Shown piece by piece: positions 31,906-62,580 of a stretch of DNA of 64,000 nt. The stretch lies in sequence record OR062945.1. The stretch is one strand, 5' to 3'. Under the pieces are notes generated by a model. It saw nothing but the letters and a program-made list of their open reading frames with translations, was not told the origin of the DNA and searched no databases. A program made the translations under genes and the position numbers. Source of the DNA: Escherichia phage 308Ecol101PP. Within the stretch, counting starts at the first letter, position 1, and each line of letters opens with the position of its first letter.

Positions 31906-32210
31906 TGAAACTACGTCTTTTAGAGGATATTGATATGAGCACTAATCACGGCTTGGTTAAGTTTATTGACGATAGTTCAAAGATTGAATTTGTTCAGCGA
32001 GATAAAATCCACGGTGAAGAAGAGTTCGTTCCTCCGGCATGGAACGAAATAATGAAAATGGTTGAACGACGTGAAAATGCTGCCAAATCGGCAGCAAAAC
32101 ATCCGTGCCCGGAATGTGGAACTATCCAAGTCCAACTGGTTAACTGGACCACTAATAACTTGAAATTGAAATGCCGTAAATGCTTCCACAAATTTGAGAG
32201 AACATTATAA
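31905..32210 (+). CDS. Small Zn-ribbon-like protein
   Basis: CPECG...CRKC pair of CxxC motifs; TAATG overlap. Confidence 0.55.
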   Translation: MKLRLLEDIDMSTNHGLVKFIDDSSKIEFVQRDKIHGEEEFVPPAWNEIMKMVERRENAAKSAAKHPCPECGTIQVQLVNWTTNNLKLKCRKCFHKFERTL

Positions 32211-32623
32211 TGAGATATAGCCTTCGTTGTTTTATCGCAGCTTTAGTTTTTGCTATTATTCCATTCATTTGGAACAGCCAGAATACTTACATGGAAACTA
32301 AAGTAATTCCTGTGGAGGTAGTGGAATTAATCTCAGGCCAATCTACAGGAAAATATTCTAAATTAGAATTTATTGCAGTCTATAAAGATGAGCAAGGACG
32401 AGTTTTTGACAGGCGTGTATCGCCATCGTTTTATACGCTTCTGAATAAAGGTGATACGATAGCTATAGAAATTCGTGAGATGGATATCAAACAAACTACT
32501 AAAGATAACTTGATTTGGTTCTTTGGTACAGTGTTGTTGGTTTCTATCTGTATCACAGGTTTTATTACATGTATTGTATTTGGCATTGCATATTTAATCG
32601 ATGAAAGGAAAAATAATGTTTAA
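32210..32623 (+). CDS. Membrane protein
   Basis: N- and C-terminal hydrophobic segments. Confidence 0.6.
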   Translation: MRYSLRCFIAALVFAIIPFIWNSQNTYMETKVIPVEVVELISGQSTGKYSKLEFIAVYKDEQGRVFDRRVSPSFYTLLNKGDTIAIEIREMDIKQTTKDNLIWFFGTVLLVSICITGFITCIVFGIAYLIDERKNNV

Positions 32624-32879
32624 AGTGTACGGGTATGACTCTACTATTCATAAATGCATTTATTGCGATAATGCGAAACGATTGCTGACTGTTAAGAAAC
32701 AACCATTCGAATTCATTAATGTTATGCCAGAAAAAGGTGTGTTCGATGATGAGAAAATTGCTGAGCTTCTGGTTAAGCTTGGTCGTGAATCACAAGTTGG
32801 ATTGACTATGCCTCAAGTGTTTGCTCCTGATGGAACTTCGATCGGTGGCTTTGACCAACTACGAGAATATTTTAAATGA
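32616..32879 (+). CDS. nrdC: Glutaredoxin (T4 thioredoxin NrdC)
   Basis: MFKVYGYDSTIHKCIYCDNAKRLLTVKKQPFEFINVMPEKGVFDDEKIAELL...GGFDQLREYFK with CxYC active site. Confidence 0.9.
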   Translation: MFKVYGYDSTIHKCIYCDNAKRLLTVKKQPFEFINVMPEKGVFDDEKIAELLVKLGRESQVGLTMPQVFAPDGTSIGGFDQLREYFK

Positions 32880-33232
32880 CATATTCATTAAATCTTAAAG
32901 ATTTCCAAGATGTATACGAAGTTTGTGCCAATGAACTTGGTCCTGATGCTCCAACTATTATTGAAGTTTTAAATGTGCTCCCTTCATCATTAGCTTACGA
33001 AGCCAAATCATGTGGTTGGAACGACACTGTCGTTCGTGATGACCTTTACGTCCTGATGAACGATATGATGGTTAAAAAGGCAGAACCGGTTGCACCAATG
33101 GTTACCATTACCGTTGAAGAATATAATCGCCTGCAAGCCATTGAAGAGCTTCTGTGGAACATTGAATGTGACCTGCCATCCGGACTAGAATCCTGGATTG
33201 ATTATGAAGAGCTCAATAAACTCCGGGGTTAA
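32876..33232 (+). CDS. Hypothetical protein
   Basis: ATGA overlap with nrdC. Confidence 0.6.
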   Translation: MTYSLNLKDFQDVYEVCANELGPDAPTIIEVLNVLPSSLAYEAKSCGWNDTVVRDDLYVLMNDMMVKKAEPVAPMVTITVEEYNRLQAIEELLWNIECDLPSGLESWIDYEELNKLRG

Positions 33233-33281
33233 ACCGTGGTATTCGGCTCGATGGGAGACAGTCGAGCCAGACGTCGAAACA

Positions 33282-33312
33282 GTTTACAATGACGAAGAAA
33301 CGTGTTATGATG
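33282..33312 (+). promoter_or_regulatory. Possible early promoter (GTTTAC ... GTTATGAT)
   Basis: -35 consensus only; weak -10. Confidence 0.3.
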
Positions 33313-33360
33313 AACCTTCAATAAATGAATTAATTGATATGGAAATGGGAAGAGATTATT

Positions 33361-33531
33361 ATGCAAGTTAAATTATTGTACCGTTTATTAAAAAATGGCA
33401 AGCATGATTGGTATTTGCTTATTAAAACCGATCCGAATTTTTTCTCTGGACAACCATTTACAGTTCGTCCTACTAAACGTCAGCTTCGCAAAGCTAAACG
33501 TTCCCATCGTAACTTTTATAGAGAATATTGA
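33361..33531 (+). CDS. Small basic protein, VRPTKRQ-tail family
   Basis: C-terminal ...FTVRPTKRQLRKAKRSHRNFYREY. Confidence 0.5.
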   Translation: MQVKLLYRLLKNGKHDWYLLIKTDPNFFSGQPFTVRPTKRQLRKAKRSHRNFYREY

Positions 33532-33532
33532 T

Positions 33533-33946
33533 ATGAATATTTCTGAAACTCGCGGTAAATGGTTCAAGATTGTTAAAGAAGACGAAGAACTCCAAGATAA
33601 GTTTCCTGAATTAAAGAAAGATACGATCATCAAGGTAATTGGTACTACTACCGAAGATGGTTATGGCGACCATGGCATTATCGAAGTGATGTTGAACACA
33701 GGTGAGAAACTTTGCATCTATGACCGTGATACTTCTCTTTGGTGCTTCTGGGAATCCCATTCAATAGATGAACTCGAAGAAATTGACCAAGTAGTTTGTG
33801 ATGGTGGACTTGGCGAATTCGAAGGTGAACGTATTTCTTATGCTTTAGCTAAATTAGCCGCCCAAGAAAATAATGACGGTTATGAAGGTAATCTGATGCA
33901 AGCCGCAGCGGAATACATTGAATATTTAGAAAGACGTTTAAGTTAA
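33533..33946 (+). CDS. Hypothetical acidic protein
   Basis: ATG 33533 right after upstream stop; flanked by two VRPTKRQ-family ORFs. Confidence 0.65.
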   Translation: MNISETRGKWFKIVKEDEELQDKFPELKKDTIIKVIGTTTEDGYGDHGIIEVMLNTGEKLCIYDRDTSLWCFWESHSIDELEEIDQVVCDGGLGEFEGERISYALAKLAAQENNDGYEGNLMQAAAEYIEYLERRLS

Positions 33947-33955
33947 GGGCTTATT

Positions 33956-34135
33956 ATGAAAACTGCATTATTTTTTGGCGAAAGAACAAACGGTCAAAAA
34001 TCTTGGAAATTTGTTATAATTGGTGCTCCAAACAATCCGAACATGAGGACTTCAATCATTTCGGTAACACGTCCTACTAAAAGAATGATTCGCCAATACA
34101 AACGTTTCCATCGTGACTTTTATAACATTTATTAA
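33956..34135 (+). CDS. Small basic protein, VRPTKRQ-tail family (59 aa)
   Basis: MKTALFFGERTNGQKSWKFVIIG...SVTRPTKRMIRQYKRFHRDFYNIY; paralog of 33361 ORF; below ORF-track threshold. Confidence 0.45.
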   Translation: MKTALFFGERTNGQKSWKFVIIGAPNNPNMRTSIISVTRPTKRMIRQYKRFHRDFYNIY

Positions 34136-34137
34136 AT

Positions 34138-34168
34138 TATAAATACCCTTATCTAATATGGTAAGGGT
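34138..34168 (+). promoter_or_regulatory. Gene 49 late promoter TATAAATA plus hairpin sequestering the gene 49 ribosome-binding site
   Basis: TATAAATA 34138-34145; inverted repeat ACCCTTA (34145-34151) / TAAGGGT (34162-34168) whose 3' half contains the SD AAGGG. Confidence 0.5.
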
Positions 34169-34173
34169 TTATT

Positions 34174-34647
34174 ATGTTATTATCTGGCAAATTATACAAA
34201 GAAGAAAAACAAAAATTTTATGATGCACAGAATGGTAAGTGTCCTATTTGCCACCGTGAATTAGACCCTGATGTTCAAGGTAACCATCTTGACCACGACC
34301 ACGAATTAAACGGGCCAAAAGCAGGTAGAGTTCGTGGGTTACTCTGTAATCTGTGCAACGCAGCAGAAGGCCAAATGAAGCATAAGTTCAACCGTTCCGG
34401 TCTTAAAGGACGTGATGTCGACTACCTCGAATGGCTTGAAGCTCTTCTTGCTTATTTGAAACAAGATTATTCTGATAATAATATCCATCCTAATTTTGTT
34501 CCAGACAAAACTAAAGAGTTCTCAAGACTAGGTAAAGAGGAAATGATGGCTGAGATGCTTCAAAGAGGATTTGAATATAATGAATCTGATACCAAAACAC
34601 AATTAATAGCTTCATTCAAAAAGCAGCTTAGAAAGAGTTTAAAATGA
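34174..34647 (+). CDS. 49: Endonuclease VII (Holliday junction resolvase) gp49
   Basis: MLLSGKLYKEEKQKFYDAQNGKCPICHRELDPDVQGNHLDHDHELNGPKAG...; near-identical to T4 gp49. Confidence 0.95.
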   Translation: MLLSGKLYKEEKQKFYDAQNGKCPICHRELDPDVQGNHLDHDHELNGPKAGRVRGLLCNLCNAAEGQMKHKFNRSGLKGRDVDYLEWLEALLAYLKQDYSDNNIHPNFVPDKTKEFSRLGKEEMMAEMLQRGFEYNESDTKTQLIASFKKQLRKSLK

Positions 34648-36461
34648 AAATTGAAAAAGAAATTGAAGGATTAATTCATAAAACTAATAAAGATCTTTTG
34701 AACGAGAATGCTAATAAAGATTCTCGTGTTTTTCCAACTCAACGGGACCTTATGGCTGGTATTGTGTCTAAGCACATTGCCAAAAATATGGTCCCGTCTT
34801 TTATTATGAAAGCACATGAAAGCGGAATTATCCATTTCCATGATATTGATTATTCCCCTGCTCTTCCATTTACTAATTGCTGTTTAGTAGATTTAAAAGG
34901 AATGCTTGAAAACGGGTTTAAGCTAGGTAATGCTCAAATTGAAACGCCTAAATCGATTGGTGTTGCTACTGCAATTATGGCACAAATTACCGCACAGGTT
35001 GCTTCACATCAGTACGGCGGAACGACTTTTGCTAATGTAGATAAAGTACTTTCTCCTTATGTTAAACGCACCTATGCAAAACATATTGAGGATGCAGAAA
35101 AATGGCAAATCGCTGATGCGTTGAATTATGCCCAATCTAAAACAGAAAAAGACGTATACGATGCATTTCAAGCTTATGAGTATGAAGTAAATACTCTTTT
35201 TAGCTCAAACGGTCAAACGCCTTTTGTAACAATTACATTTGGTACTGGAACTGACTGGACTGAACGAATTATTCAGAAAGCAATTCTTAAAAACCGCATT
35301 AAAGGCCTTGGTCGTGATGGAATAACTCCTATTTTCCCTAAACTTGTTATGTTCATTGAAGAGGGTGTCAATCTTTATAAAGACGACCCGAACTATGATA
35401 TTAAGCAGCTTGCTCTAGAGTGTGCAAGCAAAAGAATGTATCCTGATATTATTTCAGTTAAGAACAATAAAGCTATCACTGGTTCATCTATTCCTGTTTC
35501 TCCAATGGGTTGTCGTAGTTTCTTGAGTGTATGGAAAGATTCGACTGGAAATGAAATTCTTGATGGACGTAATAATCTTGGTGTTGTAACACTGAATCTT
35601 CCTCGTATTGCGTTAGATTCTTATATTGGAACACAATTCAATGAACAGAAATTTGTTGAGCTATTTAATGAACGAATGGATCTGTGTTTTGAAGCCTTGA
35701 TGTGTAGAATTAGTTCTTTAAAGGGTGTTAAAGCAACTGTTGCTCCTATTCTTTACCAAGAAGGTGCATTCGGGGTTCGTCTTAAACCTGATGACGATAT
35801 AATTGAGTTATTTAAAAACGGTAGAAGTTCAGTGTCCTTAGGATACATTGGTATTCACGAATTGAATATTCTTGTCGGTCGTGATATTGGACAAGAAATT
35901 TTAACTAAAATGAATGCTCGTCTTAAGCAGTGGACTGAAAGAACCGGTTTTGCTTTTAGCTTGTATTCTACTCCTGCTGAAAACCTGTGCTATCGCTTCT
36001 GTAAACTTGATACCGAGAAATATGGAAGTGTAAAAGATGTTACTGATAAAGGCTGGTACACTAATAGTTTCCATGTTTCAGTAGAAGAAAATATCACTCC
36101 GTTTGAAAAGATTTCTCGCGAAGCCCCATATCATTTCATTGCGACTGGCGGACATATTTCTTATGTTGAACTTCCTGATATGAAAAATAACCTAAAAGGT
36201 CTTGAGGCTGTATGGGATTATGCTGCACAACATTTAGATTATTTTGGTGTTAATATGCCAGTAGATAAATGTTTTACATGTGGAAGTACTCATGAAATGA
36301 CTCCTACTGAAACCGGATTTGTTTGTTCTATTTGTGGAGAAACTGACCCTAAAAAGATGAACACCATAAGAAGAACATGCGGTTATCTTGGAAATCCTAA
36401 CGAACGCGGATTTAATCTCGGCAAAAATAAAGAAATCATGCATAGGGTTAAACACCAATGA
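34644..36461 (+). CDS. nrdD: Anaerobic ribonucleoside-triphosphate reductase NrdD (no intron)
   Basis: 605 aa continuous ORF; C-terminal Zn ribbon CFTCG...CSICG and glycyl radical motif RRTCGYLG. Confidence 0.95.
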   Translation: MKIEKEIEGLIHKTNKDLLNENANKDSRVFPTQRDLMAGIVSKHIAKNMVPSFIMKAHESGIIHFHDIDYSPALPFTNCCLVDLKGMLENGFKLGNAQIETPKSIGVATAIMAQITAQVASHQYGGTTFANVDKVLSPYVKRTYAKHIEDAEKWQIADALNYAQSKTEKDVYDAFQAYEYEVNTLFSSNGQTPFVTITFGTGTDWTERIIQKAILKNRIKGLGRDGITPIFPKLVMFIEEGVNLYKDDPNYDIKQLALECASKRMYPDIISVKNNKAITGSSIPVSPMGCRSFLSVWKDSTGNEILDGRNNLGVVTLNLPRIALDSYIGTQFNEQKFVELFNERMDLCFEALMCRISSLKGVKATVAPILYQEGAFGVRLKPDDDIIELFKNGRSSVSLGYIGIHELNILVGRDIGQEILTKMNARLKQWTERTGFAFSLYSTPAENLCYRFCKLDTEKYGSVKDVTDKGWYTNSFHVSVEENITPFEKISREAPYHFIATGGHISYVELPDMKNNLKGLEAVWDYAAQHLDYFGVNMPVDKCFTCGSTHEMTPTETGFVCSICGETDPKKMNTIRRTCGYLGNPNERGFNLGKNKEIMHRVKHQ

Positions 36462-60942: not shown

Positions 60943-60996
60943 GTTTACATCTTCCTCTAGGCATGATACGATGTACTTACACCAACCAAGAGGAAA
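60943..60996 (+). promoter_or_regulatory. Early promoter cassette with anti-SD/SD inverted repeat
   Basis: GTTTAC; TTCCTCT ... AGAGGAA. Confidence 0.5.
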
Positions 60997-61001
60997 ACAT
61001 T

Positions 61002-61376
61002 ATGAATATGTCTCAAGCAATTTTTACTGCAATCACCGAAAACACAACTGTTGAAGTAGTTTCTCCACTGGCAACCTACGTTATTCTTGCTCCTAAAACT
61101 ATTGTATCTCGTATGGAAAACATGGGCAAACGTATCGTACAAATTGTTGGAGCCGGAAATCAAAAACTTGATTATCTGCGAACCATCAAAGCTTATGAAC
61201 ATTTCCAACTCGAAAAAGGTTCTCCTATCCAGGTAGAACTCGTAAATGGTGATATCGTTCGAGCAATGTTCCATCATTTCTATGCATTGAATGACCCATC
61301 TAAAGCAGTTCGTTTAATTGCATACGACGCAAACCAAACCGAAATCAACGCAGATGTATCTAAATTACGTTTTTAA
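61002..61376 (+). CDS. Hypothetical protein
   Basis: Promoter cassette 60943; SD AGAGGAAAA then ATG 61002. Confidence 0.6.
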   Translation: MNMSQAIFTAITENTTVEVVSPLATYVILAPKTIVSRMENMGKRIVQIVGAGNQKLDYLRTIKAYEHFQLEKGSPIQVELVNGDIVRAMFHHFYALNDPSKAVRLIAYDANQTEINADVSKLRF

Positions 61377-61431: not shown

Positions 61432-61749
61432 ATGAAAACCATCGATTGTAAAGCAGAATTTAAGATTTTTTATCACGGTTCAAGTAGTTCAGCTAACATC
61501 GAAAACATGCTTTGTCCTCCTGAGGAAACAGGAGTTCTGTCTGAAACCGGACGTAAGAAAAACTTGGATCGTGTATTCTTTACTGAAGATATCGGTTTAG
61601 CAAAGATTTATGCAGGACGAGCAGCACGCTCTTATGGAGGTGAACCACGTCTCTATCGAGTAATTTCTCCGGTAGACGTAGTTCAAATGAATGATACTAA
61701 AGGTGCTACAGTTTATCACGCTGAATGGGCATTTTGTGAGGAAATATGA
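61432..61749 (+). CDS. Hypothetical protein
   Basis: Promoter cassette 61377; SD GGAGAA. Confidence 0.6.
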   Translation: MKTIDCKAEFKIFYHGSSSSANIENMLCPPEETGVLSETGRKKNLDRVFFTEDIGLAKIYAGRAARSYGGEPRLYRVISPVDVVQMNDTKGATVYHAEWAFCEEI

Positions 61750-61937
61750 GCAAATTAACTAAAGTTACTTTTATAGGTTGGTTTAAAAGCGGTGAGATGT
61801 TCACTAAAGATATCATGTTATCAGGTGATCGCGAAGAAATCGAGTGGGTTACGGTACAACTTGCTGAAGTGAACAACGCATTAGTTAAAGCATTTGTTAA
61901 TGACGAGAAAGTTTTTGAAGCTGATTTCAGAGGATAA
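61746..61937 (+). CDS. Hypothetical protein
   Basis: ATGA overlap; 63 aa. Confidence 0.5.
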   Translation: MSKLTKVTFIGWFKSGEMFTKDIMLSGDREEIEWVTVQLAEVNNALVKAFVNDEKVFEADFRG

Positions 61938-61938
61938 T

Positions 61939-62151
61939 ATGTATTCAACTGTGTTTAAACCATCAACATACGAATTTGCATCAACTACACAATGGAAAGC
62001 TCTTATTCTGGAAGGATGGGAACTAATGATGGACTGTGAAGCATCTGAAAAGTTTCCGCACGGCAAAGTGGACTTCGTTAAATTTGCTGTACGTCCGACT
62101 AAACGACAGATTCGTCAAGAAAAACGCAAATTTCGCAAAAGTTTAAAATAA
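61939..62151 (+). CDS. Small basic protein, VRPTKRQ-tail family
   Basis: C-terminal ...FAVRPTKRQIRQEKRKFRKSLK; SD GAGGATAA then ATG 61939. Confidence 0.5.
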   Translation: MYSTVFKPSTYEFASTTQWKALILEGWELMMDCEASEKFPHGKVDFVKFAVRPTKRQIRQEKRKFRKSLK

Positions 62152-62211: not shown

Positions 62212-62580
62212 ATGAAAAAATTAATCGCTTTAGCAATGGTATTTGGATTAACCGGATGTGGTGCCCATGGCTTTATCCCTAATAACGTTGGCCAATTGAT
62301 TTACAATCCGAATGTTAAACAATATGAACAACCTAAAGTTGAAGTGGAAGACCCGGTTACTGTAGGTAATCGAATGATTCAAGCTGATGCCCATGCTCAA
62401 CGTTATCGTGACTCTGATACTGTAGCTGTGTCAAAGGAACAGCGCGTTAAAGAACATTGCTTACAGGCTACTGAAATCGCATTCATTCGCTATGTTGAAA
62501 CAACCGGTAAAGAGCCTACCCAGAAACAAATCGCGAATAACTACGTCCAGTGTATTGAACGTTTAAACAAATTTAATTAA
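62212..62580 (+). CDS. Lipoprotein
   Basis: MKKLIALAMVFGLTGC signal peptide with lipobox; promoter 62154. Confidence 0.6.
   Translation: MKKLIALAMVFGLTGCGAHGFIPNNVGQLIYNPNVKQYEQPKVEVEDPVTVGNRMIQADAHAQRYRDSDTVAVSKEQRVKEHCLQATEIAFIRYVETTGKEPTQKQIANNYVQCIERLNKFN

Follow-up and report, generated by a model that had tools for sequence, protein, structure and literature searches.

The 64,000-nucleotide stretch of DNA from Escherichia phage 308Ecol101PP analysed in this study (sequence record OR062945.1; hereafter the window) carries three short open reading frames (ORFs) with similar Arg/Lys-rich C-terminal segments. Two of them, copies A and B, adjoin pin, the gene for an inhibitor of the host Lon protease; the third, copy C, lies about 28 kb away from this pair and starts 1 nt past the dmd stop codon (Table 1). 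Sequence profiles identify A, B and C as true paralogs of the TifA family (Pfam DUF7279). C is TifA itself, and on balance we favor the interpretation that A and B are diverged, minimal RNA-binding counter-defence proteins placed around a resident pin gene. The region between 32500 and 34700 is 100% identical to the corresponding DNA of Escherichia phage vB_EcoM_JQD51 (JQD51) and 99.3% identical to that of phage JS09. By this measure, the window phage is an RB69/JS09-like T-even phage (Mosigvirus, RB69 group).

An earlier inspection of the letters of the window (below, the original prediction) had described A, B and C as paralogs. All three ORFs were found where this inspection had placed them, with the C-terminal sequences it quoted. 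The A and B proteins align over their full length with 36% identity (pairwise E 1e-11; z = 15.6 against 2000 shuffles), and when everything from RPTK onward is cut off, the remaining similarity still scores z = 5.5, a level reached in one of the 2000 shuffles. The paralogy of A and B was thus upheld. The case of C required more sensitive methods. Pairwise similarity of C to either A or B is limited to a 15-18 residue RPTKR stretch, and comparison of the N-terminal part of C with those of A and B gave no significant pairwise score (z = -0.6 and 0.8, respectively). This comes close to the outcome that the original prediction had named as its own refutation, namely, similarity confined to a short basic stretch. 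Because pairwise tests outside the tail were not significant, we relied on profiles, and these bore out the placement of C as the third paralog. All three proteins score above the 24.5-bit gathering cutoff of DUF7279 (PF23945) and cover most of the 53-position model (A, 54.5 bits, E 1.1e-14; B, 53.8 bits, E 1.8e-14; C, 72.1 bits, E 3.5e-20). Aligning a 13-sequence profile of the short (A/B) type to a 14-sequence profile of the long (TifA) type with hhalign yielded a probability of 98.9% (E 1.9e-17) over 43 columns. The aligned columns do not start at the basic motif; they start at the conserved Trp strand, take in the loop and third strand and reach into the helix. PHROG assignments split the three along the same line, with A and B matching phrog_3272 (E 5.8e-27 and 1.8e-30) and C matching phrog_2375. 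A and B can therefore be regarded, on profile grounds, as a separate short subfamily (phrog_3272) of the TifA family.

A six-frame scan with hidden Markov models (HMMs), which took in the window plus the other ~105 kb of the JQD51 genome, found exactly three copies. The scan of the whole genome was used in place of a motif-only tblastn, which undercounts the copies (two places per genome, B being missed). The family is small, or else its members are too short for wide detection: a word-indexed protein search with C returned two clusters only, and an exhaustive profile search returned only 29 clusters at E <= 1e-3. NCBIfam holds no model for A, B or C; the name given by NCBI to cluster members is already "DUF7279 family protein". 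The representative of the A cluster, UniProt A0A0U4JDN8, is among the ten "TifA homologs" of Figure 5C in PMC10853763, so the homology of A-type proteins to TifA was already implicit in the literature.

C is identical to RB69 gp61.4 at 70 of 70 residues and shares 57% identity with T4 gp61.4, the TifA protein; its sequence thus identifies it as TifA (ToxN inhibitory factor A). The position of C in line with dmd is that of a functional tifA gene, a position that A and B do not share. In T4, tifA (61.4) inhibits the type III toxin ToxN, and amplification of the dmd-tifA locus allows the phage to evade toxIN, a type III toxin-antitoxin system; the RB69 homolog is a more potent inhibitor than that of T4, and the authors proposed that each TifA is "tuned" to its cognate ToxN (Srikant et al. 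2022 eLife; PMC9391042). A subsequent study described the fold of the protein as a three-stranded sheet packed against a basic C-terminal helix, with a protruding loop of about 20 residues modelled at low confidence (Guegler et al. 2023 NAR; PMC10853763). TifA_RB69 binds RNA with a KD of 0.36-2.3 uM and, in vitro, single- and double-stranded DNA similarly. P53 and T54 form the helix cap and K55, R56 and R59 are the RNA-binding residues: in P53A/T54A or K55A/R56A/R59A mutants, RNA no longer co-purifies with the protein and ToxN neutralization is lost. Loop residue 41 tunes ToxN inhibition, and the toxin becomes trapped alongside TifA on abundant RNAs, 16S rRNA among them (PMC10853763). The original prediction had suggested nucleic-acid binding from the Arg/Lys-rich tail. 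This proved well founded, as the RPTKRQIR motif it had flagged contains the residues mutated in TifA_RB69, with which C is identical (PMC10853763): the PTKRxxR core of the flagged "VRPTKRQ" motif corresponds precisely to the five mutated positions. Nucleic-acid binding by the basic tail is thus already established experimentally for a protein identical to C.

The same five residues are conserved in the shorter copies. In the alignment, P53, T54, K55, R56 and R59 of TifA_RB69 correspond to P37, T38, K39, R40 and R43 of A and to P41, T42, K43, R44 and R47 of B, so that the PT cap and the basic cluster typical of the family are present in A, B and C alike. The AlphaFold model of A (pLDDT 85.6) shows three strands (residues 2-9, 15-24 and 27-33) joined by tight turns and followed by a helix (39-55). 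The strands of the C model (pLDDT 79.6) span residues 2-6, 27-33 and 43-49, and its helix residues 55-69. Both models agree with the published description of TifA; the fold of B is deduced from its alignment with A. The short and long proteins differ in what connects the strands. Between strands 1 and 2, C has 20 residues modelled at low confidence (7-26) where A has five (10-14), and between strands 2 and 3, it has nine (34-42) where A has two (25-26). By alignment with A, the corresponding connections of B would measure about five and about eight residues. Residue 41 falls inside the 34-42 loop of C. Hence, the two elements that make up the predicted ToxN interface, the ~20-residue loop and the residue-41 loop, are present in C and missing from A and B in full form; judging by the models, neither of the loops linked to ToxN recognition reaches its full length in the two short copies. 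In all, A and B resemble TifA in the conserved Trp strand, in the PT cap and the K/R/R positions, and in a predicted fold made up of a three-strand sheet and a C-terminal helix. They are 11-14 residues shorter than TifA_RB69, with its ~20-residue beta1-beta2 loop mostly missing and its residue-41 loop partly or wholly so, and they belong to phrog_3272 instead of phrog_2375 and lie beside pin instead of dmd. As modelled, A is a minimal TifA core that keeps the sheet, the PT cap and all of the RNA-binding residues, and B looks alike by alignment. A Foldseek comparison of the A model to BFVD retrieved hypothetical proteins of the same subfamily (PTK, Merlin, S16) and noise, and gave no functional lead.

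We then considered how A and B came to flank pin. As the original prediction had it, the ORF between them (33533..33946) encodes an acidic protein that is unrelated in sequence to the three paralogs, and lies upstream from B and gene 49. The protein matches Pfam Inhibitor_I24 (PF10465) over virtually its entire length (E 3.4e-47; residues 7-137 on positions 2-136 of 136), and Pin is annotated at this locus in JS09 and RB69. The original prediction interpreted the arrangement as an insertion of this gene into a duplicated locus. Two features speak for such an insertion: pin is flanked by paralogs, with intergenic gaps of only 1-9 bp, and a single A-like gene without pin exists, for example in phages phiE142 and ST0. 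We examined the model with a census anchored on gene 49, comprising 44 IMG/VR loci, T4 and several GenBank genomes. The results were at variance with it. In T4 and in 21-22 of the 44 related loci, including some whose pin product is only 31-43% identical, pin resides between 49.1 and 49 without any TifA-like gene. The slot just upstream of gene 49 (B slot) holds a TifA-family gene in 14 of the 44 loci, for example in KIT03 (Tequatrovirus), VR20 (Gaprivervirus) and G2285 (Mosigvirus), and a 54-aa form of the Merlin type is also found there. The slot between 49.1 and pin (A slot) is occupied only in the window, in one near-identical IMG/VR locus and in Mosigvirus genomes such as JS09, RB69 and APCEc01. 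All combinations occur: A, pin and B together in the window, JS09 and RB69; A and pin in APCEc01; pin and B in G2285 and KIT03; pin alone in T4; and B without pin in locus L017. Furthermore, the pin-less single genes are A/B chimeras (see below), the signature of a deletion rather than of an empty site, and with only 36% identity between A and B, any duplication must be far older than the polymorphism of the A slot. Insertion of pin into a tandem A/B duplication is therefore highly improbable. The pin-only loci and the distribution of the two slots indicate instead that pin was there first and that the small genes came in on either side of it. The parsimonious history would start from resident pin, continue with an old acquisition of a B-type gene at the pin/49 junction and end with a later, lineage-restricted addition of an A-type gene between 49.1 and pin.

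Two further observations pertain to the slots. One more distant T4-like locus (L043:2707..2958, IMGVR_UViG_2974769608_000001) has an 84-aa member of the long type in the B slot, following nrdC, and no pin; thus, different subtypes of the family can occupy one slot. Relative to G2285, which lacks A, genomes bearing A have about 171 extra bases (33344..33514), and the A-carrying segment of ~171 bp is flanked by a 9-bp direct repeat, ATTGATATG, at 33333..33341 and 33526..33534. A clean excision or insertion of A at these repeats was considered and set aside, as the G2285 junction contains extra bases; no mechanism was drawn from it.

The resident pin can also be lost. The 3' ends of A and B contain matching stretches of 22 bp, which include an identical 9-mer, ACTTTTATA (Table 1). 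In phiE142 and ST0 (census loci L009 and L052), pin is absent and a single gene lies between 49.1 and gene 49. Its product follows A up to ...HRNFY and then ends with the B tail NVY (...HRNFYNVY). At the DNA level, BLASTN comparison of the phiE142 locus to the window showed 97% A-like sequence up to ACTTTTATA, followed by the last codons of B and the gene 49 leader. The uninterrupted junction is also present in Shf125875 and FL18, and 5 of the 15 listed protein variants of the A cluster have a B-type tail, NVY or NIY. These junctions indicate that recombination between A and B within ACTTTTATA deleted 604 bp, including pin, in several Mosigvirus isolates and left an A/B chimera behind. A and B thus serve as direct repeats whose recombination removes pin, the opposite of what the original prediction envisaged, and this deletion is the only type of rearrangement observed at the locus. 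The NVY and NIY tails were considered as evidence for two independent deletions; across the 171-nt junction, only one base separates Shf125875 from phiE142, and no such claim is made. The difference between the two tails could be a single point mutation.

According to the published mechanism, which was shown for the RB69 protein identical to C, TifA binds cellular RNA and ToxN together, locking the toxin in an inactive ribonucleoprotein and thereby protecting the phage from toxIN abortive infection. C is an early protein co-transcribed with dmd. A and B may likewise bind RNA through the conserved PT-capped helix, and would serve in accessory counter-defence through RNA-dependent tethering or trapping of a host nuclease. 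Since both ToxN-recognition loops are shortened in these proteins, we consider the E. coli ToxN that TifA inhibits a less likely target than some other toxin or a ToxN of divergent sequence; the target would probably be either a further ToxN variant or a separate host nuclease directed at RNA. Their setting fits a role in counter-defence, being a variable stretch beside a host-protease inhibitor and subject to frequent gain, loss and recombination. More speculatively, the short pin-flanking proteins might form a distinct "minimal TifA" class that uses the RNA anchor to trap RNA-targeting host defence nucleases beyond ToxN, among them further type III toxins, and might constitute, together with Pin, a second counter-defence island upstream of gene 49 that is reshuffled by paralog recombination. 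We view this broader scheme as a possibility only, and a tentative one.

Any such role presupposes that A and B are genes in their own right. At 56 and 59 aa they are very short; they are uncalled, or called only "hypothetical protein", in several annotated genomes, and A is frameshifted in the RB69 reference (see below), all of which would suit chance ORFs or decaying remnants without function. The conservation pattern makes this explanation very hard to sustain. Among B orthologs, the dN/dS ratio of 0.12-0.23 bears the mark of purifying selection; synonymous sites approach saturation when genera are compared, and the frame is intact in at least three genera; the B-slot orthologs of Tequatrovirus and Gaprivervirus genomes retain 50-60% identity. 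A orthologs show few differences, synonymous for the most part. Proteins exactly matching A, B and C were found on 261, 27 and 341 contigs, respectively, and tblastn detected A-type orthologs (at least 80% identity) in 145 phage records and B-type matches (most at 50-60% identity) in 367. The ATG codons of A (33361), B (33956) and C (61939) are preceded by GGGAAGAG, TAAGGG and GAGGA, respectively; both A and B thus have Shine-Dalgarno-like motifs, besides being tightly coupled to their neighbors and having confident predicted folds or family matches. The question is then what the proteins do. They could be redundant or allele-specific ToxN inhibitors that widen the range of toxIN variants overcome by the phage. 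They share the family, the fold and the RNA-binding residues of TifA; the notion of a TifA "tuned" to each cognate ToxN would accommodate them, and toxIN restricts RB69, where B is intact, far less severely than T4, a phage lacking both genes. Yet, the advantage of RB69 was ascribed to TifA_RB69 itself (PMC9391042), A and B have truncated versions of the two loops to which ToxN contact and specificity are linked, and none of the ToxNs tested is inhibited even by longer homologs that stand closer to TifA. We thus find a role as additional ToxN inhibitors unlikely. Nor does it seem probable that A and B are general RNA- or DNA-binding housekeeping proteins, involved in mRNA stability, translation or nucleoid handling and unrelated to defence. 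In favor of this idea, the generic basic helix is the only strictly conserved feature, RNA binding by TifA has no evident sequence specificity and extends to DNA in vitro, and for several members of the family no toxin target is known. Its difficulty is the patchy presence of A and B in close relatives, including the RB69 frameshift and the deletion described above, a pattern typical of accessory host-range genes; moreover, the single characterized relative is a counter-defence factor.

Several points weigh against the interpretation of A and B as RNA-binding counter-defence proteins. The RB69 reference (NC_004928, 48375..48545) has seven A residues inside copy A where the window has six (33390..33395). 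The resulting frameshift explains why RB69ORF089c is annotated at only 38 aa, and reflects either a true pseudogene of the laboratory phage strain or a sequencing mistake of long standing. Given the frameshifted A of RB69 and the many relatives without A or B, neither gene is essential. The N-terminal halves alone match DUF7279 weakly (A, E 0.059; B, E 0.11), so that most of the signal resides in the PT-capped basic helix of about 20 residues, and the structural models were built from alignments only 23-25 sequences deep. In vitro, TifA binds DNA in addition to RNA. Six additional TifA homologs, all of them longer proteins and none of the A or B type, neutralized none of seven ToxN/TenpN toxins tested (PMC10853763). 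Family membership is thus no predictor of target, and some members of the family may have a role other than defence. A scan for sigma-70 consensus promoters found 14, no better than the 11.3 +/- 3.3 of shuffled sequences, and no claim is made about the promoter driving A and B. Finally, no mention of DUF7279, ORF087c or ORF089c was found in the literature searched.

Table 1. Positions of the genes and sequence elements discussed, with gene order taken from the JS09 and RB69 annotations combined with the ORF list of the window.
Feature	Position	Strand	Remarks
nrdC	32616..32879	+	
RB69ORF091c-like ORF	32876..33232	+	118 aa; between nrdC and 49.1
49.1	ends 33371	+	
Copy A (RB69ORF089c)	33361..33531	+	56 aa; between 49.1 and pin; DUF7279, phrog_3272
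A 3' end, CGTTCCCATCGTAACTTTTATA	33499..33520	+	20/22 identical to B counterpart
Crossover 9-mer, ACTTTTATA	33512..33520 (A), 34116..34124 (B)	+	604 bp apart
pin (PinA)	33533..33946	+	137 aa, acidic; host Lon protease inhibitor; PF10465, phrog_2167
Copy B (RB69ORF087c)	33956..34135	+	59 aa; between pin and gene 49; DUF7279, phrog_3272
B 3' end, CGTTTCCATCGTGACTTTTATA	34103..34124	+	partner repeat of the A stretch
T4-type late promoter motif, TATAAATA	34138..34145	+	read from sequence
Hairpin	34145..34168	+	9-bp stem; directly after TATAAATA; ends 5 nt ahead of the gene 49 ATG
Gene 49 (endonuclease VII)	34174..34647	+	followed by nrdD
dmd	61746..61937	+	
Copy C (tifA, gp61.4)	61939..62151	+	70 aa; directly downstream of dmd; DUF7279, phrog_2375

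The B slot is bounded downstream by the promoter motif and the hairpin ahead of gene 49 (34138..34168), which are ~92-96% identical across the T-even genomes listed. By analogy with T4, TATAAATA and the hairpin would be part of gene 49 regulation, and the element resembles the hairpin in the T4 gene 49 leader. Scanning 32000..35000 with Rfam brought up nothing beyond a chance match (E 0.081; 25.6 bits, where the gathering score is 140).

Other ORFs near the two loci deserve mention. The C-terminal 55 residues of the ORF preceding 49.1 (32876..33232) match phrog_3402, "antitoxin from a toxin-antitoxin system", with an E value of 1.2e-32; a match to the Pfam family of the T7 gp5.9 RecBCD inhibitor is weak and below threshold (E 0.015). 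The RB69 counterpart of this ORF is annotated as two short ORFs (091c and 092c). By these matches, it may be a further counter-defence candidate within the stretch that holds A, pin and B. In the interval between gene 41 and dmd, ORFs 60963..61376 and 61432..61749 match phrog_10668 and phrog_2110, respectively, and have no Pfam match; both are missing from the dmd-tifA locus of T4. The second of them overlaps the start codon of dmd and is, for this reason, probably co-transcribed with dmd and tifA. On the other side, tifA is followed by a lipoprotein-like ORF (62212..62580), a homolog of Imm.1 (Pfam DUF5481, E 1.7e-9), located before imm and sp. Superinfection-exclusion genes thus cluster with the dmd-tifA genes in the Mosigvirus group, which is not so in T4.

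A comparison to known systems helps place these findings. Dmd (T4 gp61.5), the antitoxin against RnlA and LsoA, is like TifA a small early T-even protein that neutralizes a host RNase toxin. The two genes are co-operonic and, as suggested by the authors of the TifA work, may form an "anti-TA island" (TA, toxin-antitoxin). The proteins are unrelated in sequence, and according to the same authors, Dmd inhibits RnlA directly whereas inhibition by TifA also requires RNA binding. PinA resembles A and B in being the product of an accessory host-takeover gene and differs from them in being an acidic protease inhibitor. The Pfam entry for DUF7279 carries no function, even though TifA, its best-known member, has one. 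TifA belongs to a small group of phage counter-defence proteins whose mechanism requires an RNA co-factor.

The present results do not overturn current understanding: A, B and C fall within a known family whose founding member corresponds to C, and A and B are uncharacterized members of that family. What is new is modest and consists of two loop-less TifA paralogs beside pin, the presence of three family genes per genome and the deletion of pin mediated by paralogs. The annotation of widespread "hypothetical proteins" beside pin is corrected, and phages of the RB69/JS09 type are seen to carry three TifA-family members. The locus documents a natural instance of direct repeats, here a pair of paralogous, putatively counter-defence genes, deleting the gene for a Lon inhibitor that lies between them. 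The loop-less A and B proteins are candidate inhibitors of other RNase-type defences, and would provide a natural test separating the parts of TifA needed for RNA binding from those that determine the choice of target.

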